Sequence record: OQ411014.1 | Length of the DNA: 64,000 nucleotides | Direction: 5' to 3' (one strand) | Origin: Escherichia phage EJP2 | In this document: in pieces, positions 16,457-63,933 of the stretch | Position numbering within the stretch: position 1 is the stretch's first letter | Layout of the letters: each line of letters opens with the position of its first letter | Notes under the pieces: generated by a model | The model's input: only the letters and a program-made list of their open reading frames with translations | Told to the model about the DNA's origin: nothing | Database searches by the model: none | Translations under genes and position numbers: made by a program

Positions 16457-16466
16457 GTAAAAATAA

Positions 16467-16491
16467 GGGTTGACATATGTCATCCCTTTTT
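16467..16491 (+). terminator. rho-independent terminator (cassette variant)
   Basis: gggttgaca-tatg-tcatccc followed by T5. Confidence 0.6.
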
Positions 16492-16535
16492 GTATCCTAT
16501 CAGTACTGAATTAATCCCAACTAAGGTGACAAAAC

Positions 16536-24050: not shown

Positions 24051-24076
24051 GGGGTTGACTTCGGTCGGCCCTTTTT
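24051..24076 (+). terminator. terminator-promoter cassette
   Basis: ggggttgac-ttcg-gtcggccc + T5; TTGACT then TTATAAT ~18 nt downstream. Confidence 0.65.
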
Positions 24077-24116
24077 GTTATAATCATTACATCGACAACC
24101 AATAGGAAATCTAAAA

Positions 24117-24785: not shown

Positions 24786-24811
24786 AGGGTTGACTTCGGT
24801 CGGCCCTTTTT
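24786..24811 (+). terminator. terminator-promoter cassette
   Basis: gggttgac-ttcg-gtcggccc + T5 then TATAAT. Confidence 0.65.
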
Positions 24812-24849
24812 GCTATAATCATTTCAACTTCTGATGAAAGGAAAATTAT

Positions 24850-53298: not shown

Positions 53299-53360
53299 TT
53301 GCACCGTACTGATAAAAGCGTATAATGTTTTACATCGAGAGCGGGAACACTTCCCGCTAC
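53299..53360 (+). promoter_or_regulatory. early-type promoter + 5' leader hairpin module
   Basis: TTGCAC-N16-TATAAT then gagagcggga-aca-cttcccgc. Confidence 0.7.
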
Positions 53361-53381
53361 ACTTTAAAAGAGATTAAAACG

Positions 53382-53744
53382 ATGGCAACTCAAATCACCA
53401 AAATTATTGCTAACCTGGTTAACTTCCGCGACGAGATGAAAGATCTTCCGGCGGCGACGGTTAAAACTCACATTGACGCATACCGCGAACTGATTAAAAT
53501 GCTGCCGCTTAAGCGTGAACAATACGCCGCCACCGTGATGCTTGATGCGATGATCCATAAGATGATCGCCAGTGATTTGACGATGGTTTATCAGTACATG
53601 GGCGAAAAATTCTCGGTGTATAGTAAACCAGTCCCAGGCATGGCAACAACTGAGGAATTGCACTGCCTTAACTTAAAGCAAGATGCATGGGATAATATGC
53701 CGCGTTTCATGGTATGGGTAGAAAGTGGTAAAATTTACGAATAA
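53382..53744 (+). CDS. hypothetical small protein
   Basis: track ORF starts at ATG inside the -10 box (53325); ATG at 53382 follows the leader hairpin (120 aa). Confidence 0.6.
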   Translation: MATQITKIIANLVNFRDEMKDLPAATVKTHIDAYRELIKMLPLKREQYAATVMLDAMIHKMIASDLTMVYQYMGEKFSVYSKPVPGMATTEELHCLNLKQDAWDNMPRFMVWVESGKIYE

Positions 53745-53757
53745 GTTAAAAATTAGT

Positions 53758-53819
53758 TTGACAGTACTGAATAAAAGCGTATAATGTTTTATATCGAGAG
53801 CGGGAAGAGTTCCCGCCTC
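53758..53819 (+). promoter_or_regulatory. early-type promoter + leader hairpin
   Basis: TTGACA-N16-TATAAT then gagagcgggaa-gag-ttcccgcctc. Confidence 0.7.
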
Positions 53820-53839
53820 CATTAAAGAGGAATTAAAAA

Positions 53840-54064
53840 ATGACTACTAAAACTTTCAACGGCCATAAAAACTACAACCATTGGAATGTTAGCCTTTGGA
53901 TCAATAACGATGAATCACTGTACCAATTGGCCCTGGAATGTATTAAAAGCACCAACACGCGAGATAAAGCGGTTGAGCGGATGTTACGCCTTTTAGGTAC
54001 TCACACGCCTGATGGGGCACGTTATAGCAAATCAAGCGTTCGTGCGGCAATGGTTGGAATGTAA
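53840..54064 (+). CDS. hypothetical small protein (paralog of 56336-56575)
   Basis: 74 aa; shares HWNVSLWINNDESLY and C-terminal AAMVGM. Confidence 0.6.
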   Translation: MTTKTFNGHKNYNHWNVSLWINNDESLYQLALECIKSTNTRDKAVERMLRLLGTHTPDGARYSKSSVRAAMVGM

Positions 54065-54076
54065 TAGAATATATTT

Positions 54077-54107
54077 AAAGTACTATCATTCTATGCGATA
54101 GTACTTT
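54077..54107 (+). terminator. hairpin, possible terminator
   Basis: aaagtactatc-N9-gatagtacttt (11-bp stem); weak T-run. Confidence 0.4.
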
Positions 54108-54157
54108 ATAATAGTGTTCTAACATACAGTACTCACTTAACTAATAGGATGTATACC

Positions 54158-54535
54158 ATGATCATTAAATTCTACGCTACCCGTGAAATCGCTCGCATCG
54201 TTGCCCGTACCGAAGGAGAAACCTTTAAAGATATGGGAACGAGTGCTGAGAAGGGTAAACGCTGGGCGGTACAGTTCAAAGAATTATCAGATATTATTAA
54301 TTCACCTGAGCCAGTACTGACAGCGGCAGAACAAGCGAAAGCCAATGAGCTGGCGGATCTTCTGAATGGTGTCAATGTGAACGTTAAAGTTAATGCGGCG
54401 GCCTGGTCACATGCTGATGCACTGGCAGCTTTAAAAAGTCCTGATAGTGTATCTCGTCGAGTGGTAGAAATAAAGCACGACCGCAAGGGCAACCGCGTTA
54501 CAGTATACAGTAAGCGTAAAATTGCAGTACTGTAA
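54158..54535 (+). CDS. hypothetical protein
   Basis: ATG at 54158 with RBS tagga 8 nt upstream (alternative ATG at 54149); 125 aa. Confidence 0.55.
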   Translation: MIIKFYATREIARIVARTEGETFKDMGTSAEKGKRWAVQFKELSDIINSPEPVLTAAEQAKANELADLLNGVNVNVKVNAAAWSHADALAALKSPDSVSRRVVEIKHDRKGNRVTVYSKRKIAVL

Positions 54536-54551
54536 TAATTCAAAAAAGTAC

Positions 54552-54614
54552 TTGCACAGTACTGAATAAAGCGTATAATGTTTTATATCGAGAGCGGGAA
54601 GAGTTCCCGCCTCC
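54552..54614 (+). promoter_or_regulatory. early-type promoter + leader hairpin
   Basis: TTGCAC-N16-TATAAT then gagagcgggaa-gag-ttcccgcctc. Confidence 0.7.
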
Positions 54615-54633
54615 ACTTAAGAGGAATTAAAAA

Positions 54634-54864
54634 ATGACTACTATGTATATGATCGAAGTTAAAACCGTAAAAGATACGACCACGAATAAAACTACTTACT
54701 TACAGCGGATCTGCGGTGTCTGGCAACGTATCAGCAAATCAAAGTACTTTAAATTAACATCATATGCAAATCGTTCGGATTCATTCAGTACTGAAATAAA
54801 AGGTAATAAAGTACACCAATACGGCACTTATTATTATTACAGCCTGGACGCGATTGCAGTATAA
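54634..54864 (+). CDS. hypothetical small protein
   Basis: 76 aa; RBS aagaggaa. Confidence 0.6.
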   Translation: MTTMYMIEVKTVKDTTTNKTTYLQRICGVWQRISKSKYFKLTSYANRSDSFSTEIKGNKVHQYGTYYYYSLDAIAV

Positions 54865-54897
54865 TCATATTTTTTGAAAAATTTACAATTGCCGGTA

Positions 54898-54926
54898 TTG
54901 ACTTATTTTGTCAGTACTGGCATAAT
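54898..54926 (+). promoter_or_regulatory. type-II promoter (TTGACT-N17-CATAAT)
   Basis: ttgacttattttgtcagtactggcataat; converges on minus-strand promoter 55049-55077. Confidence 0.55.
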
Positions 54927-55048
54927 GTATTCATTGGCAGATAAGCCGTAGCCCATAGGGTGCGGAGATGTATCTATAGAAAAAGTAGTTTAGTATAGTT
55001 ACAGTTATGCACCCGGTGGGTTAGTGACTTTCTCGTCTTTATGTAGCT

Positions 55049-55077
55049 ATTATGCCAGTACTGGATAGTGCTGTCAA
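55049..55077 (-). promoter_or_regulatory. minus-strand type-II promoter inside repeated element
   Basis: reverse complement reads TTGACA-gcactatccagtactgg-CATAAT. Confidence 0.55.
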
Positions 55078-55121
55078 TACTTTTTTCTATTCAGTACTGA
55101 AAAAGTATTTGTAGAAAGTAC

Positions 55122-55149
55122 TTGCATAGTACTGAATAAAGCGTATAAT
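55122..55149 (+). promoter_or_regulatory. early-type promoter driving structured-RNA element
   Basis: TTGCAT-N16-TATAAT. Confidence 0.65.
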
Positions 55150-55156
55150 GTTTTAT

Positions 55157-55226
55157 ATCAGGACGGGGAAGAGATTCACTGTTAAGTAGTCTAGGTGTAA
55201 GACGTATGAAAAACACCCCTGATAAA
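55157..55226 (+). ncRNA. candidate small structured RNA / leader element (copy 1 of 3)
   Basis: atcaggacgggga ... cccctgat closing helix; conserved core gttaagtagtc.agg.gtaagac.ta.gaaaa; no ORF. Confidence 0.35.
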
Positions 55227-55241
55227 AGAATTAAAAAGTAC

Positions 55242-55305
55242 TAGACAGTAAGAAATAAAAAGCGTATAATGTTTTACATCGAGTAGGGGGAATGGTTCTC
55301 CTACC
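55242..55305 (+). promoter_or_regulatory. promoter + leader hairpin
   Basis: TAGACA-N17-TATAAT then gtaggggga-atgg-ttctcctac. Confidence 0.6.
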
Positions 55306-55324
55306 TAAATTAAGGAATTACAAA

Positions 55325-55924
55325 ATGAATACTATCGTTAAATCTTTCGCAGACCTGGACGCAGAACAGAAGATCGCAGCGGTTGAAATGTATACAGACC
55401 GTGAAAAAGATAGCTCGGAAGATTTCTTTTCCGAAGGTGTAGTGGAATATTACCGTGAAACGGTACTACCTGAATACGGCATAGATGAAGCTGAATTGCA
55501 ATACAGTGGTTTTTGGTCGCAAGGTGACGGTGCATCAATCAGTACTGACAGCGTGGACGCGGAGAAGTTTTTACGCAAGATTAAAGCGTTAACGAAATAT
55601 CGTTCTATCCGTCACTTGTTGAATGAAGATGATTTGGCAATGAGTGTAGAACGTTCACACTCTCGCTACGCACACGAAAACACGGTAAGCGGATACATTG
55701 AAACGGCGTACACTGATTTAACTGTAAAACAAGCGGCACTTGCTGATGACCTGGAAAACGTACTGACCGAAACTATCCGCGAATTGTCTTGTGAACTGTA
55801 CCGTGAACTTGAGAAGGCTTATGATGATTATTACAGTACTGAAAGCATGGTTAATCAAATCGAGGGTAATGGTTACCAGTTTGAAGTAAACGAAGATGGC
55901 GACGTGGTAGGGATTGAATACTAA
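55325..55924 (+). CDS. hypothetical acidic protein
   Basis: track ORF from 55292; ATG at 55325 follows RBS aaggaa (199 aa). Confidence 0.6.
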   Translation: MNTIVKSFADLDAEQKIAAVEMYTDREKDSSEDFFSEGVVEYYRETVLPEYGIDEAELQYSGFWSQGDGASISTDSVDAEKFLRKIKALTKYRSIRHLLNEDDLAMSVERSHSRYAHENTVSGYIETAYTDLTVKQAALADDLENVLTETIRELSCELYRELEKAYDDYYSTESMVNQIEGNGYQFEVNEDGDVVGIEY

Positions 55925-55932
55925 AAAAGTAC

Positions 55933-55994
55933 TTGCATAGTACTGAATAAGGCGTATAATGTTTTATATCGAGAGCGGGAACACTTCCCGCCTC
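55933..55994 (+). promoter_or_regulatory. early-type promoter + leader hairpin
   Basis: TTGCAT-N16-TATAAT then gagagcgggaa-cac-ttcccgcctc. Confidence 0.7.
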
Positions 55995-56017
55995 ACATTA
56001 AGAGGAATTAAAAAAAA

Positions 56018-56251
56018 ATGAGTACTATCTTAACCGTTTCTCAATCTGTTGCCCTGGCTGACTTGTTGAACGCTTTAAGCCGTTGTACTGAGGTTGGCTT
56101 GTTTGATGTGGTTGACGTTGCCCCTGATGTTATCAATCATTTTTGTGATGCAATGGCTGAATGCCAGGAAGATGATCGCCGTATGATGGCGGTAAACTTT
56201 GCGGAAGTCCAGCCGGGAGAGTTAAAAGGTTTACCGGAAGTTAAAAATTAG
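56018..56251 (+). CDS. hypothetical small acidic protein
   Basis: 77-aa ORF. Confidence 0.6.
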   Translation: MSTILTVSQSVALADLLNALSRCTEVGLFDVVDVAPDVINHFCDAMAECQEDDRRMMAVNFAEVQPGELKGLPEVKN

Positions 56252-56252
56252 T

Positions 56253-56314
56253 TTGACAGTACTATCAAATAGTGTATAATGTTTTATATCGAGAGCGGGA
56301 ATGGTTCCCGCCTC
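56253..56314 (+). promoter_or_regulatory. early-type promoter + leader hairpin
   Basis: TTGACA-N16-TATAAT then gagagcgggaa-tgg-ttcccgcctc; overlaps 3' end of upstream gene. Confidence 0.7.
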
Positions 56315-56335
56315 CAATTAAGAGAGATTAATATC

Positions 56336-56575
56336 ATGGCAACTACTAAAACTTACAACGGTTACAAAAACAAAACTCATTGGAACGTTTCTTTGTGGAT
56401 CAATAACGATGAATCATTGTACCGCCTGGCGAAAGAGTTTATCGACGATAACGCTAATCGTGAAGATGCAGCCCGTCAGATGATGCTCTTTCTGGAACAA
56501 ACTGGACAAGATAAAACACCGGACGGCTTTAAGTATAGTACTACTGCGATCCGTGCGGCAATGGTTGGAATGTAA
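56336..56575 (+). CDS. hypothetical small protein (paralog of 53840-54064)
   Basis: track ORF from 56279; ATG at 56336 (79 aa). Confidence 0.6.
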   Translation: MATTKTYNGYKNKTHWNVSLWINNDESLYRLAKEFIDDNANREDAARQMMLFLEQTGQDKTPDGFKYSTTAIRAAMVGM

Positions 56576-56584
56576 AAAAAAGAG

Positions 56585-56645
56585 TAGACAGTACTGAATA
56601 AAAGCGTATAATGTTTTATATCGAGAGCGGGAATGGTTCCCGCTA
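56585..56645 (+). promoter_or_regulatory. early-type promoter + leader hairpin
   Basis: TAGACA-N16-TATAAT then gagagcgggaa-tgg-ttcccgc. Confidence 0.65.
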
Positions 56646-56664
56646 CTAACCTGGAGTAATTGCA

Positions 56665-56850
56665 ATGCTGAATATTTTAATCGTTGATGAACATGGTAAA
56701 GAACTGGAATCATTTGAGTCTATGATCAATCCAATTGGTTCAAAGACTATCACTACTAATCTGGCTGTTTATGAATGTAATGAGTTTTCTGTTGACTTTA
56801 AACGCAATGAGATTGTAGTACACGTTCAAAATGATTTTATGAAATTTTAA
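56665..56850 (+). CDS. hypothetical small protein
   Basis: 61-aa ORF. Confidence 0.55.
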   Translation: MLNILIVDEHGKELESFESMINPIGSKTITTNLAVYECNEFSVDFKRNEIVVHVQNDFMKF

Positions 56851-56858
56851 AATAGTAC

Positions 56859-56920
56859 TTGCATAGTACTGAATAAGGCGTATAATGTTTTATATCGAGA
56901 GCGGGAATGGTTCCCGCCTC
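56859..56920 (+). promoter_or_regulatory. early-type promoter + leader hairpin
   Basis: TTGCAT-N16-TATAAT then gagagcgggaa-tgg-ttcccgcctc. Confidence 0.7.
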
Positions 56921-56939
56921 ACTATTAAGGAATACTACA

Positions 56940-57161
56940 ATGGCTAATATCACTACTCTTTCCCAACTTGAAGCACTGGTTAAATCTATGCGTGACCATG
57001 CCAATAGTATTGGTGTACAAGATCCGGCGGTATGTTTTTGTGACGAATTGAATGATGATACTTTAATCATTGCAGAAGTCCAGGACGTTTCCAACTATTC
57101 ATCGCGTTACACTGGCGACGTAGCAAATAAAGGTGACTTCTGTTTATACCTTACAAAATAA
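56940..57161 (+). CDS. hypothetical small protein
   Basis: track ORF from 56907; ATG at 56940 follows RBS aaggaa (73 aa). Confidence 0.6.
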   Translation: MANITTLSQLEALVKSMRDHANSIGVQDPAVCFCDELNDDTLIIAEVQDVSNYSSRYTGDVANKGDFCLYLTK

Positions 57162-57165
57162 TAAC

Positions 57166-57195
57166 AACGGGGATAATAACTCCCCGTTACTTTTT
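57166..57195 (+). terminator. rho-independent terminator
   Basis: aacgggga-taataac-tccccgtt followed by acttttt. Confidence 0.65.
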
Positions 57196-57266
57196 CAGTA
57201 CTGAATCATTTAATAGACGGATCTATGCACCCGGTGGGTTAGTGACTTTCTCGTCTTTATGTAGCT

Positions 57267-57295
57267 ATTATGCCAGTACTGGATTGTATTGTCAA
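57267..57295 (-). promoter_or_regulatory. minus-strand type-II promoter inside repeated element
   Basis: reverse complement reads TTGACA-atacaatccagtactgg-CATAAT. Confidence 0.55.
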
Positions 57296-57338
57296 GCATT
57301 TAAAGTACATTTATTTTAAAAAGAATATGAAGAAAGTA

Positions 57339-57396
57339 CTATACACGGCTGAATAAAAGCGTATAATGTTTTGCATAGGGGGAAACAACTTCCCCC
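57339..57396 (+). promoter_or_regulatory. promoter (weak -35) + leader hairpin
   Basis: TATAAT at 57362-57367; hairpin agggggaa-acaac-ttccccc. Confidence 0.5.
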
Positions 57397-57418
57397 ACTA
57401 ATTAAGAGAGAAATAAAA

Positions 57419-57625
57419 ATGGCTAAATGTACTATTTGTAATAAAGCAATTGTGCTAGTTCCTTCCGCTAGTGAACGTGCTAAACGTTATGGTGGCAAAG
57501 CGTCAGACTATACAAAAATGTTCACTACTCATACTGAATGTGCTATTAAAAAACGTTCAGAAGAAAGCACTGAATTAATGCGTCGAATTGTCGCGGAATC
57601 AAAAGCTAAAAAAGTACTTGCATAA
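57419..57625 (+). CDS. hypothetical small Cys/His protein
   Basis: track ORF from 57371; ATG at 57419 (68 aa); MAKCTICNK...HTEC. Confidence 0.55.
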   Translation: MAKCTICNKAIVLVPSASERAKRYGGKASDYTKMFTTHTECAIKKRSEESTELMRRIVAESKAKKVLA

Positions 57626-57673
57626 CTTATTCAGTACTGTACAATGTTTTTCAAAGGGGGAACAACTTCCCCC
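57617..57673 (+). promoter_or_regulatory. early-type promoter + leader hairpin
   Basis: TTGCAT-N16-TACAAT then agggggaa-caac-ttccccc; -35 lies in last codons of upstream gene. Confidence 0.65.
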
Positions 57674-57693
57674 GCTAATTAAGGAATAAGAAA

Positions 57694-57930
57694 ATGGCTG
57701 AACAAATTAAATCAACGTCTTCGAATGTGACGGGTACTGTAGCTCACTTTATCGGTGATGAATCGCGTGGTGTTCCCTATTGTGCGGTGCATGTAAACAC
57801 TGAGGGTAACTACTGGTTTACAGTTTACGGATCATATTCATTTGGACGACCTGGACACCAAAAAATCCTGGATAAAGTACAACCAACGGGTAAAAATATC
57901 ACTGCTGAAATGTTTTATAAAAAATCATAA
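57694..57930 (+). CDS. hypothetical small protein
   Basis: 78 aa; RBS aaggaataag. Confidence 0.6.
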   Translation: MAEQIKSTSSNVTGTVAHFIGDESRGVPYCAVHVNTEGNYWFTVYGSYSFGRPGHQKILDKVQPTGKNITAEMFYKKS

Positions 57931-57936
57931 AAGTAC

Positions 57937-57997
57937 TTGCATAACTTATTCAGTACTGTACAATGTTTTATATCGAGAGCGGGGAATACTTCCTCGC
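57937..57997 (+). promoter_or_regulatory. early-type promoter + leader hairpin variant
   Basis: TTGCAT-N16-TACAAT then gagagcggggaatacttcctcgcc. Confidence 0.6.
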
Positions 57998-58018
57998 CTT
58001 AACTAAAAGGATATACTA

Positions 58019-58318
58019 ATGAAAATTGCACTAATCGCCCTGGCCTTGTCTGTTTCCTCTTTCGCCGCTACTGCATCGCGTGATGTACCAACTGAAAAAT
58101 TTATTCAGTGCCAGGTTATCATGACAGACGAAAACACGGGCGGCATGTTTACCAAACCGCTTGAATTAAATCCGGCGATGTTTAAGGCGGGGATGTTCCA
58201 CGAAGAAGACGAAAAAGGCAGTACTACAATCTATTACGACGAACAACGTAAACGCGGCACTGTTACGGTAATGGATGAATCATCAGTTACCTTTACGGGG
58301 ATCATTACCTGTAAGTAA
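58019..58318 (+). CDS. putative secreted protein
   Basis: 99 aa; signal peptide MKIALIALALSVSSFAATA. Confidence 0.6.
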   Translation: MKIALIALALSVSSFAATASRDVPTEKFIQCQVIMTDENTGGMFTKPLELNPAMFKAGMFHEEDEKGSTTIYYDEQRKRGTVTVMDESSVTFTGIITCK

Positions 58319-58367
58319 TAAGGGGAATTATCATCATAACTTTCACTGGCGGTTAACAGTACTGAAT

Positions 58368-58389
58368 CATAGGGGGAATAGTTCCCCCT
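58368..58389 (+). promoter_or_regulatory. leader hairpin without obvious consensus promoter
   Basis: agggggaa-tag-ttccccct upstream of 58421. Confidence 0.35.
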
Positions 58390-58420
58390 TACTATATTAA
58401 ACATCAAAGGAGTAAAGGCA

Positions 58421-58690
58421 ATGGCTATCATCACGGCAAAGACTATCTATACTATTCAACATGGTAATCAGTCCTACCAGGTGGAAGGCGTGGAAGGTTT
58501 AAAACAGTACTGCGACGATATTATGGGCGGCCTGGTTGACCGTATGACGGCGGGGAATGTAGGCCATCATTTAACTGATAAGATGAATCAGCACGCTTTC
58601 TTGATGAAATCATTCGACGAGCTTGATCTAATCGTCGATACCGTTCGCAGTGTAAAACAGTATATTGATGATATAACCAAAGATGATTGA
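58421..58690 (+). CDS. hypothetical small protein (MAII- family)
   Basis: 89 aa; N-terminus MAIITAKTIYTIQ resembles 59639-59818. Confidence 0.55.
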   Translation: MAIITAKTIYTIQHGNQSYQVEGVEGLKQYCDDIMGGLVDRMTAGNVGHHLTDKMNQHAFLMKSFDELDLIVDTVRSVKQYIDDITKDD

Positions 58691-58709
58691 TAGTACTGTA
58701 AACGTGTAT

Positions 58710-58745
58710 AAGCCTGTAGAATCAATTCTACGGGCTTTTTTGTTT
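58710..58745 (+). terminator. rho-independent terminator
   Basis: gcctgtagaat-caa-ttctacgggc followed by T6. Confidence 0.7.
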
Positions 58746-58846
58746 TATATGATGTGTTAGCCTGGCTGGTGGCGTTAAGGCCGTTAGAATGCGATTGAGA
58801 GCGTCGAAAGTATTTTAAAAGTATTTTTAGAAAGTACTTGCACAGT

Positions 58847-58865
58847 ACTGATAAAAGCGTATAAT
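58847..58865 (+). promoter_or_regulatory. early-type promoter driving structured-RNA element
   Basis: TTGCAC-N16-TATAAT. Confidence 0.65.
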
Positions 58866-58872
58866 GTTTTAC

Positions 58873-58948
58873 ATCAGGACGGGGAAGCAAACTAGCTCAA
58901 CCGTTAAGTAGTCCAGGAGTAAGACATACGAAAACCTCCCCTGATAAA
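58873..58948 (+). ncRNA. candidate small structured RNA / leader element (copy 2 of 3)
   Basis: atcaggacgggga ... tcccctgat closing helix; conserved core. Confidence 0.35.
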
Positions 58949-58963
58949 GTACTAAAAAGTAGT

Positions 58964-58991
58964 TTGACAATAGAAAGTAAACGAGTATAAT
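58964..58991 (+). promoter_or_regulatory. sigma70-type promoter
   Basis: TTGACA-N16-TATAAT (tttgacaatagaaagtaaacgagtataat). Confidence 0.65.
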
Positions 58992-59024
58992 ACTCACATC
59001 AACTTAACGAAAGGAATAAAAAAA

Positions 59025-59252
59025 ATGGCTATCATCATCACTCGCGTATCTGGTACAGTTGGCAATGCGGTAGTAGTAGCGGTTATCACTAACAAGAAAG
59101 GTGCGGAACTGCATTTTGCAATGAATAACTGGTCAGTGAATGAGTTCGGGCAGTTCGCTAGTGTAGAATACATTGAAACCTATCAAGTACCGACTATTAG
59201 CTTAACTGATTTAGGTGTCGAGCGTATCCTTTGCCTGGATGAATTAAACTGA
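59025..59252 (+). CDS. hypothetical small protein (MAII- family)
   Basis: 75 aa; RBS aaaggaa. Confidence 0.55.
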   Translation: MAIIITRVSGTVGNAVVVAVITNKKGAELHFAMNNWSVNEFGQFASVEYIETYQVPTISLTDLGVERILCLDELN

Positions 59253-59262
59253 TAAAAAGTAC

Positions 59263-59319
59263 TTGCACAGTACTGAAAAAAGCGTATAATGTTTTATATA
59301 GGGGGAAACAACTTCCCCC
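59263..59319 (+). promoter_or_regulatory. early-type promoter + leader hairpin
   Basis: TTGCAC-N16-TATAAT then agggggaa-acaac-ttccccc. Confidence 0.7.
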
Positions 59320-59339
59320 GCTAATTAAGGAATAAGAAA

Positions 59340-59552
59340 ATGGCTAATATCTGCACTGTACTGAAAAATGCAAAACAAGTTTTATTTTCTGACCATGAAA
59401 ATTTTAATAAAGATATTACAGGCGTTAAGAATATCAAAGATGTAAAAAGTGCAATAGGTATCTATTGCAATATGAAACGTGTTGGAACGTTCGGTGACAA
59501 GGTACTATATCAGGCAGGGGATTACAATTTTACACTGACTATCATTAACTAA
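59340..59552 (+). CDS. hypothetical small protein
   Basis: 70-aa ORF. Confidence 0.55.
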   Translation: MANICTVLKNAKQVLFSDHENFNKDITGVKNIKDVKSAIGIYCNMKRVGTFGDKVLYQAGDYNFTLTIIN

Positions 59553-59571
59553 AAATATTATCACAGTACTA

Positions 59572-59600
59572 TTGACATAATTTGATAGTACTGACATAAT
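59572..59600 (+). promoter_or_regulatory. type-II promoter (TTGACA-N17-CATAAT)
   Basis: ttgacataatttgatagtactgacataat; no leader hairpin. Confidence 0.6.
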
Positions 59601-59638
59601 AACTTTTATCAAGTACATACTATTAAGGAATTTAAAAA

Positions 59639-59818
59639 ATGGCTATCATCGCAAAAACTGAGATTCAAGGCTTAGATTCTATCCTCCTGGCTTATGAGTC
59701 CGAGAAAGGTTTATATGTTGTTTCCTATGGTGATTATATTCGTGACTTTGAAGAAATTGATCAAGCCTTTGAATGCTACATTCGCCAGGTGAATAAAGCA
59801 TACGACGATTACCGGTAA
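59639..59818 (+). CDS. hypothetical small protein (59 aa, MAII- family)
   Basis: ATG after RBS aaggaa; not in ORF track. Confidence 0.45.
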   Translation: MAIIAKTEIQGLDSILLAYESEKGLYVVSYGDYIRDFEEIDQAFECYIRQVNKAYDDYR

Positions 59819-59836
59819 AATATTATCACAGTACTA

Positions 59837-59865
59837 TTGACATAGTTTGATAGTACTGACATAAT
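59837..59865 (+). promoter_or_regulatory. type-II promoter (TTGACA-N17-CATAAT)
   Basis: ttgacatagtttgatagtactgacataat. Confidence 0.6.
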
Positions 59866-59901
59866 AACTTTTATCGAGTGCAACTATTAAGGAATACTAA
59901 A

Positions 59902-60153
59902 ATGCAATCTATCAGTACTTTAATCGATGCAGGTTATGATGTTCGTCGTTCCATGATCGCGGTTAGTTCTTCCCAGGTCGTTCAAAGTGGTTATGTATGT
60001 TTTGTTGTTCGTGGTACATTACAGGAGCGAGCAATAAACCACGATGTAAAGAATAATTGCTCTTACATTGTATTCCGAAAAGTCAAATATAAACTTGATG
60101 TTCCCGTAAAGCCTATTAGCGGGGCGTACAACGTAGAATCATTAAAAGCGTAA
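59902..60153 (+). CDS. hypothetical small protein
   Basis: track ORF from GTG 59878; ATG at 59902 follows RBS aaggaa (83 aa). Confidence 0.55.
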   Translation: MQSISTLIDAGYDVRRSMIAVSSSQVVQSGYVCFVVRGTLQERAINHDVKNNCSYIVFRKVKYKLDVPVKPISGAYNVESLKA

Positions 60154-60221
60154 CAGCATAGCAGTACTGACCATTAACGCCGTAGCGGTCGATTTAGGCC
60201 GCTTATATTGAGGATTTAACT

Positions 60222-60611
60222 ATGAATACTAATCAAGTACTGAACGAAATCGAAAGCATCATTAAGCCGATGAAACGTGTTGATGCAATGCTAACACCGG
60301 AAGAAAGTCGCTTGTATGAGCGATACAGCGTCGAACAAGCCCAGGCGATGGCACGTATTCGCCCCGTTGCCAGTACTGACAAGGAAGATCCAACGTTAGC
60401 CATCCAAAAGAAGATCGACATCTTAGCGGCGAATATGTATATGATTGATGCGTCGCCAGGTAAAGTATTTGCGTATGATGATACAACTGAAAGCGATTTC
60501 TACTATAGCCTGGACGTGGGGGATCTTCCTATCGAGTCAGTGATTGAACATGTTGTAACTGTTGCTTATGATCATTTAGTTAAAAACAATGTTGACAGTA
60601 CTATCAAATAG
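60222..60611 (+). CDS. hypothetical protein
   Basis: 129 aa; RBS gaggat. Confidence 0.6.
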   Translation: MNTNQVLNEIESIIKPMKRVDAMLTPEESRLYERYSVEQAQAMARIRPVASTDKEDPTLAIQKKIDILAANMYMIDASPGKVFAYDDTTESDFYYSLDVGDLPIESVIEHVVTVAYDHLVKNNVDSTIK

Positions 60612-60654
60612 CGTATAATGTTTTACATCGAGAGCGGGAATACTTCCCGCCTCA
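60592..60654 (+). promoter_or_regulatory. early-type promoter + leader hairpin
   Basis: TTGACA-N16-TATAAT then gagagcgggaa-tac-ttcccgcctc; promoter embedded in 3' end of upstream CDS. Confidence 0.7.
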
Positions 60655-60674
60655 CTAATTAAGGAATTAAAATT

Positions 60675-60908
60675 ATGATGCACATCCTTACTCTTACTCT
60701 GAATCACAAAACTTATGAAACTATCCTCGTCATCTCTGAGTCGCAGGAAAAGGTACGTGATCACGCGGCGAAAGTAATGCAGGCATTCAGTGAACGTTAT
60801 CCTACATGGGATCGTGATTATAGTATGTTACACATTGCCGATGGCAACGCGATAATGGTCCAGGACGTGCCAAATCACGGGGCTGAATCAGTACTAGTTT
60901 TATTTTAA
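60675..60908 (+). CDS. hypothetical small protein
   Basis: 77 aa; RBS aaggaa. Confidence 0.6.
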   Translation: MMHILTLTLNHKTYETILVISESQEKVRDHAAKVMQAFSERYPTWDRDYSMLHIADGNAIMVQDVPNHGAESVLVLF

Positions 60909-60916
60909 AATAGTAC

Positions 60917-60978
60917 TTGCATAGTACTGAAAAAAGCGTATAATGTTTTATATCGAGAGCGGGAATAGTTCCCGCCTT
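60917..60978 (+). promoter_or_regulatory. early-type promoter + leader hairpin
   Basis: TTGCAT-N16-TATAAT then gagagcgggaa-tag-ttcccgcc. Confidence 0.7.
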
Positions 60979-60996
60979 AACTAAAAGGGTAACATC

Positions 60997-61209
60997 ATGC
61001 AAGGTCAACTAATCGTTCGTAAATGGTCTGATACTAACGCTAAACCGTGGGATGTACAATACATCGCCCCAAATGGTGAATCCAGATATCAACCAGGTGT
61101 AACGCATAGTACTGAGCAATTCGCCGCCGCTCATCGCGAACGTCTGTTACAATCAATTCAGCAAGGTTCCGGTGAAAAATTCATTCAGGATCATTGGCTG
61201 AAAGATTAA
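60997..61209 (+). CDS. hypothetical small protein
   Basis: 70-aa ORF. Confidence 0.6.
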   Translation: MQGQLIVRKWSDTNAKPWDVQYIAPNGESRYQPGVTHSTEQFAAAHRERLLQSIQQGSGEKFIQDHWLKD

Positions 61210-61227
61210 CAAAAAAAGATTAAAAAA

Positions 61228-61258
61228 GGGATTGACTCCGGTCAGTCCTTTTTGCTAT
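61228..61258 (+). terminator. rho-independent terminator (cassette family)
   Basis: gggattgac-tccg-gtcagtcc followed by T5. Confidence 0.65.
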
Positions 61259-61351
61259 TATATACGCATCGAAACAATCTAGCCCACCGGGTGCATAAAT
61301 GTATCTTTTTTTTGCTGGTGGCTAGTACTGAAAACTATTTTTAAAAAGTAC

Positions 61352-61379
61352 TTGCATTGTACTTAGAATAAAGTATAAT
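61352..61379 (+). promoter_or_regulatory. early-type promoter driving structured-RNA element
   Basis: TTGCAT-N16-TATAAT. Confidence 0.6.
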
Positions 61380-61387
61380 GTTTTACA

Positions 61388-61461
61388 TCAGGACGGGGAA
61401 CGAAACAAGTAACCCCGTTAAGTAGTCCAGGAGTAAGACATACGAAAACCTCCCCTGATAA
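61388..61461 (+). ncRNA. candidate small structured RNA / leader element (copy 3 of 3)
   Basis: atcaggacgggga ... tcccctgat closing helix; inner stem acgggg/ccccgt. Confidence 0.35.
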
Positions 61462-61467
61462 AATAGT

Positions 61468-61495
61468 TTGACAATAGAAATTAAACGAGTATAAT
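61468..61495 (+). promoter_or_regulatory. sigma70-type promoter
   Basis: TTGACA-N16-TATAAT (tttgacaatagaaattaaacgagtataat). Confidence 0.65.
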
Positions 61496-61527
61496 ACTTA
61501 CATCAACTACTGTTAAGGAAACATAAA

Positions 61528-61803
61528 ATGCGGATTCTACTGACAGCTAACGAAATCGAACAAGTACTGACTACTAACCTGGAAGACTGGAAACGTGAAG
61601 CAGATATCCAGGCGGTTCAATTGCTTAACGATAAGTTAACGCCGGATGACTTAAGCAAAATTGTAGATCCTCAATTCTACGAAGATATCCACGACACCGC
61701 GTTAAGCGTCGAGGATGTACTTGATAAGCATTTTATTGATATTGATTTGCAGGTTTACGGTCGTAAAAACTTTATCACTATCCACGACATTTACAATAAT
61801 TAA
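61528..61803 (+). CDS. hypothetical small acidic protein
   Basis: 91-aa ORF. Confidence 0.6.
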   Translation: MRILLTANEIEQVLTTNLEDWKREADIQAVQLLNDKLTPDDLSKIVDPQFYEDIHDTALSVEDVLDKHFIDIDLQVYGRKNFITIHDIYNN

Positions 61804-61805
61804 GT

Positions 61806-61866
61806 ATTGACAAAGTATCTTAGTACTGTATAATAGTTTACATCAAGGGGGGAATGGTTCCCCTCA
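61806..61866 (+). promoter_or_regulatory. promoter + leader hairpin
   Basis: TTGACA-N16-TATAAT then aggggggaa-tgg-ttcccct. Confidence 0.65.
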
Positions 61867-61883
61867 AGTCCAGGAGATACACC

Positions 61884-62147
61884 ATGAACGCTATTGAAAT
61901 CACTATTAATGCACACGTATACGACAACGTAGTACTGCAAACTACTATGACCGCCAATGATAGCAGTACTTTGCGAAATACTGTTATCAGTGCCGTTTGT
62001 GCTGCTGTTGGTGATGTAGCACTGGAGAACGCACAACATATTAACCAGGCCTTTACTATGTGCAAGCGTGATAACTCAAAACATATTATCGTCGAAGGTG
62101 TAGGCGGTGTTGAATTTAACGTATACATGAAAAAGGTAACAGCATGA
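61884..62147 (+). CDS. hypothetical small protein
   Basis: track ORF from 61854; ATG at 61884 follows RBS aggaga (87 aa). Confidence 0.55.
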   Translation: MNAIEITINAHVYDNVVLQTTMTANDSSTLRNTVISAVCAAVGDVALENAQHINQAFTMCKRDNSKHIIVEGVGGVEFNVYMKKVTA

Positions 62148-62335
62148 CCGTCGATGAAGTCCGCAAAGTACTGGCAGCGTTACGCTATCATAATCATAGC
62201 AAGGTCATAAATGATCCTGATTATGTTGATTCAAGCCTGGAGGAAGACACCTTGAACGCGATTAGCTATATGCAAACGTTACTGAAGCGTATGACTGAGA
62301 AGAATAGATCTGATTTCATCGGTGATAAAATTTAA
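62144..62335 (+). CDS. hypothetical small protein
   Basis: 63 aa; ATGA overlap with upstream gene. Confidence 0.55.
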   Translation: MTVDEVRKVLAALRYHNHSKVINDPDYVDSSLEEDTLNAISYMQTLLKRMTEKNRSDFIGDKI

Positions 62336-62342
62336 AAAGTAC

Positions 62343-62405
62343 TTGCACAGTACTGATAAAAGCGTATAATGTTTTATATCGAGAGCGGGAATACTTCCCG
62401 CCTCA
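62343..62405 (+). promoter_or_regulatory. early-type promoter + leader hairpin
   Basis: TTGCAC-N16-TATAAT then gagagcgggaa-tac-ttcccgcctc. Confidence 0.7.
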
Positions 62406-62423
62406 CTATTAAGGGATAACAAA

Positions 62424-62642
62424 ATGAATTTAAATAAAGTCGAAACGAAAACTATGGTTGAAGCTATTAAACACGGTTTCACATTTAGAAATGATTCACA
62501 TTTTATTAATTTTCAACAAGGCCATAGAACTATTAAAAAACTAACAGACAAAGGTTTATTAGTAGAAGTGAATGAAGGGAACGGCGTGGAATATCGCCCT
62601 ACCCATGACGGTATTACATTTATGAAATACAGTGTAAAATAA
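62424..62642 (+). CDS. hypothetical small protein
   Basis: 72-aa ORF. Confidence 0.6.
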   Translation: MNLNKVETKTMVEAIKHGFTFRNDSHFINFQQGHRTIKKLTDKGLLVEVNEGNGVEYRPTHDGITFMKYSVK

Positions 62643-62654
62643 TTCAAAAAGTAC

Positions 62655-62717
62655 TTGCACAGTACTGAGATTCAGGTATAATGTTTTACATAGAGCGGGG
62701 GAATGGTTCTCCCGCCT
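62655..62717 (+). promoter_or_regulatory. early-type promoter + leader hairpin
   Basis: TTGCAC-N16-TATAAT then agagcggggga-atgg-ttctcccgcc. Confidence 0.65.
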
Positions 62718-62735
62718 ACATTAAGGAATAGAATC

Positions 62736-62960
62736 ATGACTACATACGCAGCACTCGAATCAGTAGTATCAGACCTGGCATTTGAATCTAAGCCGTTTGA
62801 TGCGATCTATAGTACTGATTACCGTGATGCCGTCCTGAATAGTACGCAGGAAGAAAAAGATAAACTTATCGCAACATACCATGAAGCATGGAAGTACTAC
62901 CGCCAATGGGAAAAAGAAGAAAGTGAGTCTACCATCGACGGCCTGAATAATTTAATTTAA
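62736..62960 (+). CDS. hypothetical small protein
   Basis: track ORF from 62703; ATG at 62736 follows RBS aaggaa (74 aa). Confidence 0.55.
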   Translation: MTTYAALESVVSDLAFESKPFDAIYSTDYRDAVLNSTQEEKDKLIATYHEAWKYYRQWEKEESESTIDGLNNLI

Positions 62961-62980
62961 AAAGTTTTATTTCAGTACTA

Positions 62981-63009
62981 TTGACATAGCTTGATAGTAC
63001 TGACATAAT
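62981..63009 (+). promoter_or_regulatory. type-II promoter (TTGACA-N17-CATAAT)
   Basis: ttgacatagcttgatagtactgacataat. Confidence 0.6.
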
Positions 63010-63046
63010 AACTTTTATCAAGTACATACTATTAAGGAAACAAATC

Positions 63047-63460
63047 ATGACTTCTCAAGCTCAAAACGTCCTGGCCCAAAATATTCAAGCTGACAAAAAT
63101 CATGCCGCTATGGTTGTTGGTTATATTCAAGCTATGCAATTCAGTACTGTACACAATGAGAACGGCGATTACCTGGAAGATTATGAGCTATCTGATGAAG
63201 CACGTCAAGCGGCGGTGATTGCATGTTCTCGTTTCCTTGAGAAACACGGTAATGATCTGGAAGTAGTTCGCGGCATGTTTATTGACTATAGTTATGAGAA
63301 AGCAGGTAATGATCTGTTTCTTACCCGCGAAGGTCACGGAACTGGTTTTTGGGATCGTGATTTAGGTCACTACAGCGATGTATTCACGAAGTACTGCGAA
63401 AGTATTAATGTTTGTGATCCGTACCTGGGCGATGATAACTTGATCTATATGGGTGAGTAA
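63047..63460 (+). CDS. hypothetical protein
   Basis: 137 aa; RBS aaggaaa. Confidence 0.6.
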   Translation: MTSQAQNVLAQNIQADKNHAAMVVGYIQAMQFSTVHNENGDYLEDYELSDEARQAAVIACSRFLEKHGNDLEVVRGMFIDYSYEKAGNDLFLTREGHGTGFWDRDLGHYSDVFTKYCESINVCDPYLGDDNLIYMGE

Positions 63461-63721
63461 ATGGCTGTAGGATTTGCAAAGGACGGAGCGGAGCAATTAG
63501 AGATTCTGGCGGTCGTGGAGGCCGCTGTACAGCACGCAAGAAATCAGCTAGGGGATAGTACTACTGAATCACTTAAACACTGTCAGGACTGTTTTAAGCC
63601 TATTCCTGAACGTCGTAGAGAACTGGTTAAAGGTTGCAAATATTGTATTGACTGTCAAACGGAATATGATACTATATTTAAACGAGATCCGCGTAATTGC
63701 TGGCATAGGTCGATGAGATAG
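63461..63721 (+). CDS. TraR/DksA-family C4 zinc-finger protein
   Basis: 86 aa; HCQDCFKPIPERRRELVKGCKYCIDCQ matches the CxxC-x-PIPxxRR-x-CxxC pattern of TraR-like proteins; TAAATG coupling. Confidence 0.6.
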   Translation: MAVGFAKDGAEQLEILAVVEAAVQHARNQLGDSTTESLKHCQDCFKPIPERRRELVKGCKYCIDCQTEYDTIFKRDPRNCWHRSMR

Positions 63722-63743
63722 GGGATCACTCCCCTGTTTTATT
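63721..63743 (+). terminator. rho-independent terminator
   Basis: ggggatcactcccc followed by tgttttatt. Confidence 0.55.
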
Positions 63744-63808
63744 ATTTCAGTACTGTAACCTATAGATACATTTATGCACCCGGTGGGTTAGTTGTTGTCA
63801 TGGGATAT

Positions 63809-63837
63809 ATTATGCCAGTACTGGATAAGGTTGTCAA
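63809..63837 (-). promoter_or_regulatory. minus-strand type-II promoter inside repeated element
   Basis: reverse complement reads TTGACA-accttatccagtactgg-CATAAT. Confidence 0.55.
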
Positions 63838-63871
63838 CAATTATTTTGATGTAATTATTTTAAAAAAGTAC

Positions 63872-63933
63872 TTGCACAGTACTGAAAAAGGCGTATAATG
63901 TTTTACATCGAGAGGGGGAATACTTCTCCCTGG
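63872..63933 (+). promoter_or_regulatory. early-type promoter + leader hairpin
   Basis: TTGCAC-N16-TATAAT then gagaggggga-atac-ttctccct. Confidence 0.65.

Follow-up and report, generated by a model that had tools for sequence, protein, structure and literature searches.

The window analysed here is a 64,000-nucleotide stretch of the genome of Escherichia phage EJP2 (sequence record OQ411014.1), and it is ~85-89% identical to the Asteriusvirus jumbo coliphages (PBECO4, 121Q, G17 and WPEC3). From ~53.3 kb to its end the window carries an array of small genes on the + strand. About 17 promoters at 53299-63900 have the form AAAGTACTTGCA-N-TATAATgttttayATCGAGAGCGGGAAnnnTTCCCGCCTC or a close variant of it, i.e. 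strong promoters with a hairpin at the transcription start (+1), AUCGAGAGCGGGAAnnnUUCCCGCCUC (AUCGAGAGCGGGAA...UUCCCGCCUC; promoter examples at 53299-53326, 55933-55960 and 62343-62370). At three points a longer, non-coding element stands in place of this usual +1 hairpin (Table 1), and the initial annotation had described these as three promoter-driven copies of a structured RNA. The core pattern GTTAAGTAGTCYAGGWGTAAGACRTAYGAAAA has exactly three matches in the window (55181, 58903 and 61417), each of them on the + strand, with 0 expected by chance, and a covariance model of the core recovers the same three, giving 48 bits for copy 1 and 50.7 bits each for copies 2 and 3. The runner-up of this model elsewhere in the window reaches 8.5 bits, so the set of three copies is complete. 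The 5' box ATCAGGACGGGGAA is present free of mismatches at 55157, 58873 and 61387; the first two starts agree with those given earlier, and the third, formerly placed at 61388, is moved to 61387 because the box begins there.

Promoter 1 of every copy is a strong sigma-70-type promoter, TTGCA(T/C)-N16-TATAAT, and the element starts 7 nt after its -10 box. A separate second promoter (TAGACA or TTGACA-N16/17-TATAAT), as noted earlier, is present at each copy and begins 8-18 nt past the element. The absence of coding capacity, of a terminator and of tRNA character, all proposed there, also holds: the window's list of open reading frames (ORFs) has none on the + strand inside any copy, there are no terminator-like sites between element and next gene at the three copies, and ARAGORN finds 0 genes in the whole window. 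A tRNA or tRNA-like gene is further rejected on account of the fold, which consists of three helices and a pseudoknot, not of a cloverleaf. At copies 2 and 3 a terminator-like hairpin that ends the preceding unit lies just upstream of promoter 1, and therefore the element heads a multi-promoter unit. The same order is seen in the Vequintavirinae phage A73, where a terminator, a promoter, the element, a second promoter, genes with their own promoters and a terminator follow one another. The genes adjoining the elements have no Pfam domains and are all of unknown function, so no function for the element could be read from them.

Table 1. Features of the three element copies in the EJP2 window, and the divergent variant in related records (positions in the record named)
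Feature	Position	Strand	Remarks
Promoter 1, copy 1	55122..55149	+	TTGCAT-N16-TATAAT; predicted transcript start A55157
Element copy 1	55157..55223	+	core model 48 bits
Copy 1 P1	55157-55162/55218-55223		
Copy 1 P2	55163-55166/55179-55182		ACGG/CUGU, one G-U
Copy 1 UAAGUAGUC	55183-55191		
Copy 1 P3	55194-55197/55214-55217		GGUG/CACC
Copy 1 pseudoknot	55189-55191/55201-55203		GUC with GAC
Promoter 2, copy 1	55242..55270	+	TAGACA-N17-TATAAT; then +1 hairpin, gene ATG 55325
First gene after copy 1	55325..55924	+	PHROG 5162, function unknown
Intrinsic-terminator-like hairpin and T-run	58710..58737	+	ends preceding unit; ~100 nt upstream of copy-2 promoter 1
Promoter 1, copy 2	58838..58865	+	TTGCAC-N16-TATAAT
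Element copy 2	58873..58945	+	core model 50.7 bits
Copy 2 P1	58873-58878/58940-58945		
Copy 2 P2	58879-58882/58901-58904		
Copy 2 UAAGUAGUC	58905-58913		
Copy 2 P3	58916-58919/58936-58939		GGAG/CUCC
Copy 2 pseudoknot	58911-58913/58923-58925		GUC with GAC
Promoter 2, copy 2	58964..58991	+	TTGACA-N16-TATAAT; 12/12 consensus match
First gene after copy 2	59025..59252	+	75 aa, PHROG 13850, function unknown
Terminator-like hairpin upstream of copy 3	61224..61253	+	ends preceding unit
Promoter 1, copy 3	61352..61379	+	TTGCAT-N16-TATAAT
Element copy 3	61387..61459	+	core model 50.7 bits
Copy 3 P1	61387-61392/61454-61459		
Copy 3 P2	61393-61398/61413-61418		ACGGGG/CCCCGU
Copy 3 UAAGUAGUC	61419-61427		
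Copy 3 P3	61430-61433/61450-61453		
Copy 3 pseudoknot	61425-61427/61437-61439		GUC with GAC
Promoter 2, copy 3	61468..61495	+	TTGACA-N16-TATAAT
First gene after copy 3	61528..61803	+	91 aa, PHROG 14947, function unknown
Divergent variant, L011 (WPEC3)	~15588-15673	-	
Divergent variant, L012 (PBECO4)	~16450-16535	-	
Divergent variant, L010	~9768	-	

When the window copies and their close relatives are folded one sequence at a time, the minimum-free-energy structure has three helices: P1 (AUCAGG/CCUGAU, 6 bp), which pairs the 5'-terminal strand, P2 (ACGG(GG)/(CC)CYGU), a hairpin of variable length, and P3 (GGAG/CUCC, 4 bp). The RNAalifold consensus of 11 jumbo-type sequences contains the same helices; as these sequences are too alike to covary, the wider family was used for the covariation test. 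Across 28 distinct cores, whose flanking boxes were fixed by the search pattern and hence are invariant partly by construction, with the covarying positions left free, 93.8% of the cells pair, versus 81% upon shuffling (0/500) and 19-34% with slid partners. P3 occurs as GGAG/CUCC, GGUG/CACC, CCAG/CUGG, CCUG/CAGG and CUUG/CAAG, with three of its pairs changed on both sides, and copy 1 of the window itself retains the helix through the compensatory GGUG/CACC. Beyond these helices we found a pseudoknot, which the initial annotation lacked. The nucleotide after UAAGUAG and the one after the second UAAG form A-U in 20 cores, U-A in four and C-G in three, the lone exception being phage EmilieFrey (C-A), and this covarying pair is bordered by an invariant G-C and C-G; in the window it is U-A in 3/3 copies. 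As the G-N-C after UAAGUA thus pairs with a G-N'-C in the loop of P3, the core is an H-type pseudoknot, with the strand order stem 1 5' (G-N-C), 2-3 nt, P3 5', (A)UAA, stem 1 3' (G-N'-C), an A-rich loop ending in GAAAA, and finally P3 3'.

The outermost helix needs separate treatment. In the window P1 is invariant, and a 6-bp match to a shuffled 3' flank arises in 11-22% of trials (ATCAGG/CCTGAT and ATCAAG/TTTGAT), so that taken alone it is unremarkable; we accept it because a closing helix recurs at this place with other sequences in the other subtypes and has a covarying equivalent in T7-like phages (see below). The ~10-bp terminal helix proposed earlier is accordingly cut to the 6 bp of AUCAGG/CCUGAU, as its GGGGA/UCCCC extension competes with P2 (ACGG../..CYGU) and P3 (GGAG/CUCC) and is not formable in copy 1. 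Apart from this extension, covariation supports P1, P2, P3 and the pseudoknot, and the element is predicted to be a closed, compact domain made of a P1/P2/P3 three-way junction and an H-type pseudoknot, a fold that is well supported. A copy in the UNVERIFIED record of phage CMSTMSU (L006, 1501-1572) is short of three bases in the 5' strand of P3 (GTCGAGTAAG versus GTCCAGGAGTAAG) and of one C in its 3' strand; these gaps are probably sequencing errors and not a natural variant.

A blastn search with copy 2 found the element in 44 phage records, reaching beyond Asteriusvirus, and in all of them it is intergenic and unannotated. They include the Vequintavirinae A73, W70, A7_1 and A5-4 (up to 91% identity) and the Justusliebigvirus phages EmilieFrey, outra and muut, and the promoter-element-promoter layout is likewise present in these relatives. 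Parts of the neighborhood are shared as well: the N-terminus MAIVITRVSGTVG of the gene behind copy 2 is also encoded behind the element in A73, and the cassette of copy 3 (element, promoter and gene) is also found in PBECO4, WPEC3 and muut, its gene family being absent from T7-like phages. Asteriusvirus relatives further carry a divergent variant as a third copy of the family, ATCAAGACGGGGAGCAC-TAAGTAG-ACCG-CCAG-TAAGTCGAACGAAAAA-CTGG-...-CTTTGAT, which has neither the P2 hairpin nor a second promoter and leads directly into the ribosome-binding site (RBS), in the 5' untranslated region (UTR) of a gene whose product starts with MANVKSF (Table 1). This variant is not in the EJP2 window, which has copy 2 instead. 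Used as a blastn query, it matches the jumbo phages Munch, 7t3, SE_PL, PHA46, fENko-Kae01 and Hallingskeid, the rV5-like LTH01, and T7-like phages at ~550-590 bp from their left end. Taken together, the element appears to have been traded among jumbo (Asteriusvirus and Munch-/Hallingskeid-like), rV5-like and phi92-like phages of Enterobacterales.

A jumbo-type query against IMG/VR and the JGI metagenomes returned only 121Q and two near-identical contigs, and it was a relaxed core pattern that opened up the wider family. This pattern has 44 loci in IMG/VR, of which 34 are on T7-like contigs (~27-45 kb, T7 itself included) and six are chance matches in coding regions that have no stems. In the metagenomic contigs L022 (5387-5460) and L056 (4112-4180), the latter related to the Pantoea phage LIMEzero group, a boxA-like (C/T)GCTCTTTAA follows within 20-25 nt of the element, a composite that recalls the nut or rrn antitermination sites. 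We read the context of ~60 copies. Every one lies no more than ~100 nt from where a strong promoter for the host polymerase starts and is co-oriented with the genes, none is followed by a terminator, the distance to the next promoter runs from ~2 to >40 nt, and the 3' flanks vary between types.

T7 is among the best-annotated genomes in biology. Its copy of the core lies at 550-588 (61.5 bits), between the annotated starts of the early promoters A1 (498) and A2 (626), a homology that the initial annotation did not contain. The pseudoknot strands in T7 are G556-A-C558, which comes after UAAGUA, and G569-U-C571. The records of T7, T3 and phiA1122 have no RNA annotation at the element, and full-text searches of the literature found no description of it as an RNA, turning up only template sequences that contain it. 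A 61-nt T3-type query matches 507 phage records from hosts that include Escherichia, Klebsiella, Salmonella, Yersinia, Enterobacter, Shigella, Citrobacter and Serratia, among others. T7, T3 and ~500 other Autographiviridae share, in every case downstream of their first early promoter, a 39-nt core, UAAGUAG-N-C ... stem ... UAAG-N'-C..A.GAAAA ... stem, and the family core can be defined as UAAGUAG-N-C, a 4-5-bp stem, (N)UAAG-N'-C-NN-A-N-GAAA(A/G)N and the returning stem, where N pairs with N'. All three window copies fit this UAAGUAG-pseudoknot definition and have the same promoter-proximal early placement. The spacer between A1 and A2 in T7 and T3 thus has in common with the window a homologous core, P3, the pseudoknot and the order of strong early promoter, element and promoter, and the tandem promoters lie ~116-128 bp apart in both the window and T7. 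Unlike in the window, a separate 5' hairpin comes first in the T7-like phages, with the element beginning ~50 nt into the RNA, and the strand that pairs with the 3' tail sits in the loop of the P2 hairpin, whereas in the window it lies 5' of P2 and closes a three-way junction. A boxA is present further downstream in the same leader of the T7-like phages. The best-known locus of this large, hitherto unannotated RNA family is the T7 A1-A2 spacer, and within the data searched the family is confined to virulent phages of Enterobacterales.

The promoters themselves show further resemblances to T7. The second promoters after copies 2 and 3 (TTGACAATAGAAAGTAAAC...) and T7 A3 (TTGACAACATGAAGTAAAC..., L073 715-743) are equal at 16 of the first 19 positions. 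This match goes well beyond the -35 hexamer, and element and promoter may therefore have travelled as one piece; in A73 and EmilieFrey the second promoters have different spacers. The first eight transcribed bases of the usual early promoters of the window, ATCGAGAG, are those of T7 A1 (ATCGAGAGGGACACGG).

Covariation in the T7-like phages was scored over four helices in 18 sequences, where 11 pair changes are double-sided, versus 2.8 upon shuffling (0/500) and 2-3 with slid partners. Here the small hairpin immediately 5' of UAAGUAG has a loop that pairs with what follows P3, e.g. as GUCAA/UUGAC, GUCAUC/GAUGAC, GUCGGU/ACCGAC or GAUUAG/CUAAUC, and this second pseudoknot takes the role of P1. 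The 128 bp between A1 and A2 of T7 therewith hold a covariation-supported double pseudoknot. In both the 28 cores and the 18 T7-like sequences G-U pairs are frequent, and these would be A-C mismatches on the opposite strand, which argues for an RNA of the + strand and not for a DNA structure. The earlier proposal of a structured RNA made from its own promoter is supported by these observations. They also bear on the possibility that the element works as DNA, either as a spacer, as an UP-element or factor site for promoter 2, or as a linker at which cassettes recombine, with an incidental fold. Such a role could account for the A-tract ACGAAAAAC just upstream of the A2 -35 box in T7-like phages, for the similar spacing of the tandem promoters in the window and T7, and for the recombination of cassettes at the element; it is nevertheless very improbable in view of compensatory changes in four helices, the strand-specific G-U pairs, a distance to the next -35 box that varies from 2 to >40 nt, and a variant entirely devoid of a second promoter.

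The position of the element in exact place of the AUCGAGAGCGGGAA...UUCCCGCCUC hairpin of ~17 other early promoters in the window raises the question of whether it is an elaborated +1 hairpin, i.e. a stabiliser or barrier that, with its first nucleotide paired and a rigid pseudoknot, shields the promoter-1 transcript from 5'-end-dependent attack by RppH and RNase E. The 5' box AUCAGGACGGGGAA resembles the 5' arm of that hairpin, and in the jumbo, rV5-like and Munch types P1 begins at +1 to +5; as in the ompA 5' hairpin and the phage's own +1 hairpin, the 5'-terminal nucleotides are paired at the very start of the transcript. Compared with such stabilising hairpins the element is 3-4x longer and has invariant loops, a pseudoknot and cross-family conservation; a plain hairpin would suffice for protection, and neither the loops that are invariant across families nor the covariation of the pseudoknot would be explained. 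Moreover, the T7-like phages have a separate 5' hairpin before the element, and the downstream gene has its own promoter. RNase III, as Dunn and Studier reportedly found in 1983, cuts the T7 leader off at R0.3 and so separates it from the coding RNA, which makes it unlikely that in T7 the element serves to stabilise the coding mRNA or its translation. On balance, we regard a mere 5' stabiliser as rather unlikely.

The compact, P1-closed domain of 55-75 nt, with its H-type pseudoknot, A-rich third strand and near-invariant unpaired nucleotides, has the architecture typical of small aptamers and could also be a ligand aptamer, either a riboswitch or a platform-less sponge for a small molecule such as a nucleotide second messenger. 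The preQ1-I, SAM-II and fluoride aptamers are alike in size, in H-type topology (loop 1 short, loop 3 rich in A) and in their highly conserved unpaired nucleotides, and a strong promoter and several copies would suit this reading. However, the element differs from these pseudoknot aptamers in having no Rfam match and no expression platform. With the Rfam 15 models the window has no hit that reaches the gathering score, none of the copies is overlapped by a hit at E<=10, and the elements of T7, phiA1122, Munch, Hallingskeid and LTH01 give nothing; the Rfam search envisaged at the outset thus yielded no family, and known RNA families, small ribozymes and riboswitches among them, are rejected. 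The architecture also speaks against a riboswitch, since P1 is followed by another promoter or, in the divergent variant, by an unpaired 5' UTR, and it is not linked to a competing terminator, an anti-terminator or an RBS-sequestering platform. An aptamer is accordingly a quite unlikely identity for the element.

Several mimics of host sequences were considered and rejected. A copy of a host sequence is not apparent, as blastn has no match in 5,426 E. coli genomes. Among 100,044 bacterial and archaeal species, represented by one genome each, the core pattern has 11 matches, none enterobacterial and none with a P3 stem, which puts them at chance level. A mimic of the rrn leader is rejected because the confirmed rrnB CUUAACGUCGCAAGACGAAAAAU has only ACGAAAAA in common with the element (5.5 bits), and the likeness of AAGUCG.AAC to 16S rRNA 1492-1501 is present in some subtypes only and is taken as chance. 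A CsrA sponge, to which the CAGGA motifs might point, does not fit copy 1, the type-B variant and the T7-like phages, in which the GGA motifs are missing; for a CRISPR-repeat mimic the stem polarity is wrong (by eye).

Some 500 Autographiviridae conserve the element, and four or more unrelated groups of large coliphages have exchanged it with them. As these phages have only their hosts and the early use of host RNA polymerase in common, such conservation points to an unrecognised interaction between RNA and host in the first seconds of infection. As the proteins encoded by the adjoining early genes are not what these phages share, we infer a conserved host partner: the element, transcribed first upon infection, probably acts on a component of the host, for which the invariant loops would form the binding surface. 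Its action might be in trans or in cis, and this relates to the question, raised with the initial annotation, of whether it is a free small RNA or a structured leader on a read-through transcript. Sequence alone cannot settle this, and we lean towards the leader for three reasons, namely the lack of a terminator in the ~60 copies read, the co-oriented position directly upstream of genes, and the variant in a 5' UTR. An independent small-RNA gene is rejected on similar grounds: the element has its own promoter, but there is no terminator in the window, in A73 or in the ~60 copies.

Acting in trans, the element would be an immediate-early decoy or sponge, a ~70-nt domain mass-produced from promoter 1 that titrates some protein of the host, for instance a defence sensor, a nuclease or a global RNA-binding protein, ahead of the first phage proteins. 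It could be released from the longer transcript by an endonuclease that cuts the A/U-rich sequence following P1, in T7 by RNase III, or through trimming by a 3' exonuclease as far as the pseudoknot. A consensus-strength promoter dedicated to the element, with a separate one for the gene, three copies in one genome, and a P1 that joins the 5' and 3' ends as in stable RNAs are all consistent with this, and so is the reported RNase III cut that separates leader and mRNA in T7. The patchy, horizontal-looking spread over unrelated families, with whole cassettes being shared, is typical of accessory or anti-defence loci, and the element lies in the DNA that enters first, at the left end of T7 and in the terminal-repeat region of some jumbo records. 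What weighs against a decoy is that no copy is followed by a terminator or a conserved processing signal, the 3' flanks differing by type, that the T7-like element starts ~50 nt into the RNA, that the divergent variant sits directly in a 5' UTR, and that there is no matching host sequence, so that the element is not an obvious mimic of a host RNA. We therefore treat the decoy as a serious but doubtful possibility. Blower et al. are said to have described ToxI and phage pseudo-ToxI as protein-binding RNAs with pseudoknots, which phages can imitate and so neutralise a toxin of the host. ToxI differs from the element in consisting of tandem 36-nt repeats by a toxin gene, whereas the element comes as single spaced units behind promoters, without a toxin gene, an Rfam match or a copy in the bacterial genomes searched. 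A ToxI-type array is accordingly rejected for the window, where single units stand 2.5-3.7 kb apart next to genes without Pfam domains.

A narrower and still less likely version combines the aptamer and the decoy into an RNA-only immediate-early countermeasure, produced in large amounts from the first promoter of the DNA that enters first, which would sequester a component of host defence (a sensor, a nuclease or an immune signalling nucleotide, for example) ahead of all phage proteins. It would explain why the element has a promoter of its own, occurs in multiple copies, lacks an expression platform and has spread horizontally among T7-like, jumbo, rV5-like and phi92-like phages with common hosts; we know of no RNA-only immediate-early countermeasure of this kind. 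Should the element prove to be a decoy or an aptamer, it would represent a new class of RNA anti-host device.

The reading that we put forward, tentatively, is that the element acts in cis as a leader RNA that engages the host transcription complex. It would fold co-transcriptionally on leaving the polymerase that made it, and then engage its own elongation complex, through either the polymerase itself or an elongation factor, such that transcription of the first-entering unit becomes resistant to pausing, backtracking or termination; the second promoter would just add unmodified transcripts. The strict promoter-proximal position, the variant in a 5' UTR, and the boxA that follows the element in L022, L056 and the T7-like phages favour action in cis, and a role as leader is further supported by the start of element-headed units just after terminators.

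The best analogue for how the element may act is the put RNA of phage HK022. Its putL and putR are non-coding RNAs of ~70 nt, devoid of ORF and terminator and several per genome; putL starts at +3 of the early sigma-70 promoter PL, and put binds the β' zinc-binding domain and acts without any phage protein (PMC9378689). The window element shares the traits of a ~70-nt non-coding RNA that directly follows an early sigma-70 promoter and has no terminator. The two are unlike in structure, as put has two long stems arranged in a V, with a minor-groove triplex in stem I (PMC9378689), whereas the element is a P1-closed junction with an H-type pseudoknot; also, the put phages are temperate lambdoids, and those with the element are virulent; in the window a second promoter follows it. 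Homology to put is rejected on this difference in architecture and on core-model scores of <=7.7 bits over 10 kb of HK022 (24.0-32.5 kb), a stretch that was picked as the expected immunity region and has no annotated put, nun or cI feature. Likewise, a nut or rrn antitermination site is not indicated in the window, where the boxA consensus YGCUCUUUAACAA has 23 matches at <=3 mismatches, versus 44 expected, none of them convincing.

Several observations weigh against a put-like role, beginning with this lack of likeness in sequence and fold and the absence of boxA from the window. In the window and in A73 each gene behind the element has its own promoter and the unit has no internal terminator, so that antitermination is not obviously needed. 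The second promoter directly downstream gives transcripts free of the element, and in T7 only those from A1 carry it. Since the distance between element and promoter varies over ~2-40 nt, a precisely placed pause is not the target. Finally, to our knowledge, read-through of terminators has not been reported in decades of in vitro work on templates with T7 A1, this sequence being part of some of them. If the polymerase is modified by the element, the latter would be only the second RNA of the put kind that works without protein, and the first one from virulent phages. Irrespective of the mechanism, the feature is real, ordered and widespread; we rate it as a promoter-proximal structured phage leader RNA whose sequence and fold are unrelated to those of known ones, and the family provides annotators with a model for a recurrent 'empty' intergenic region.

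Other repeats in the window are associated with its promoters and unit boundaries. The palindromic hexamer AGTACT occurs 294 times, versus ~21 expected from base composition, and is spread throughout 1-64000. Native early promoters have it at -5 and +6 as counted from where the -35 box starts (AAAGTACTTGCAcAGTACTGA), e.g. at 58834-58839 and 58844-58849, flanking the -35 box of copy-2 promoter 1, a placement like that of an operator or modification site; promoter 2 lacks it at both copy 2 and copy 3. A second repeat, TATGCACCCGGTGGG, has five occurrences (52754, 55006, 57224 and 63773 on the + strand, and 61283-61297 on the - strand) versus 0.01 expected. It forms one arm of an imperfect ~90-nt hairpin (~54945-55035; the fold of 54934-55100 has z = -4.9), and its copies mark unit boundaries, sitting immediately upstream of the promoters that belong to element copies 1 and 3. 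This hairpin could be an insulator, a bidirectional terminator or another RNA. Lastly, two near-identical promoters, TTGACTTCGGTCGGCCCTTTTTG(T/C)TATAAT, are present at 24055-24084 and 24790-24819, with a spacer that resembles the 3' half of a terminator hairpin and its T-run, such that terminator and promoter appear to overlap.

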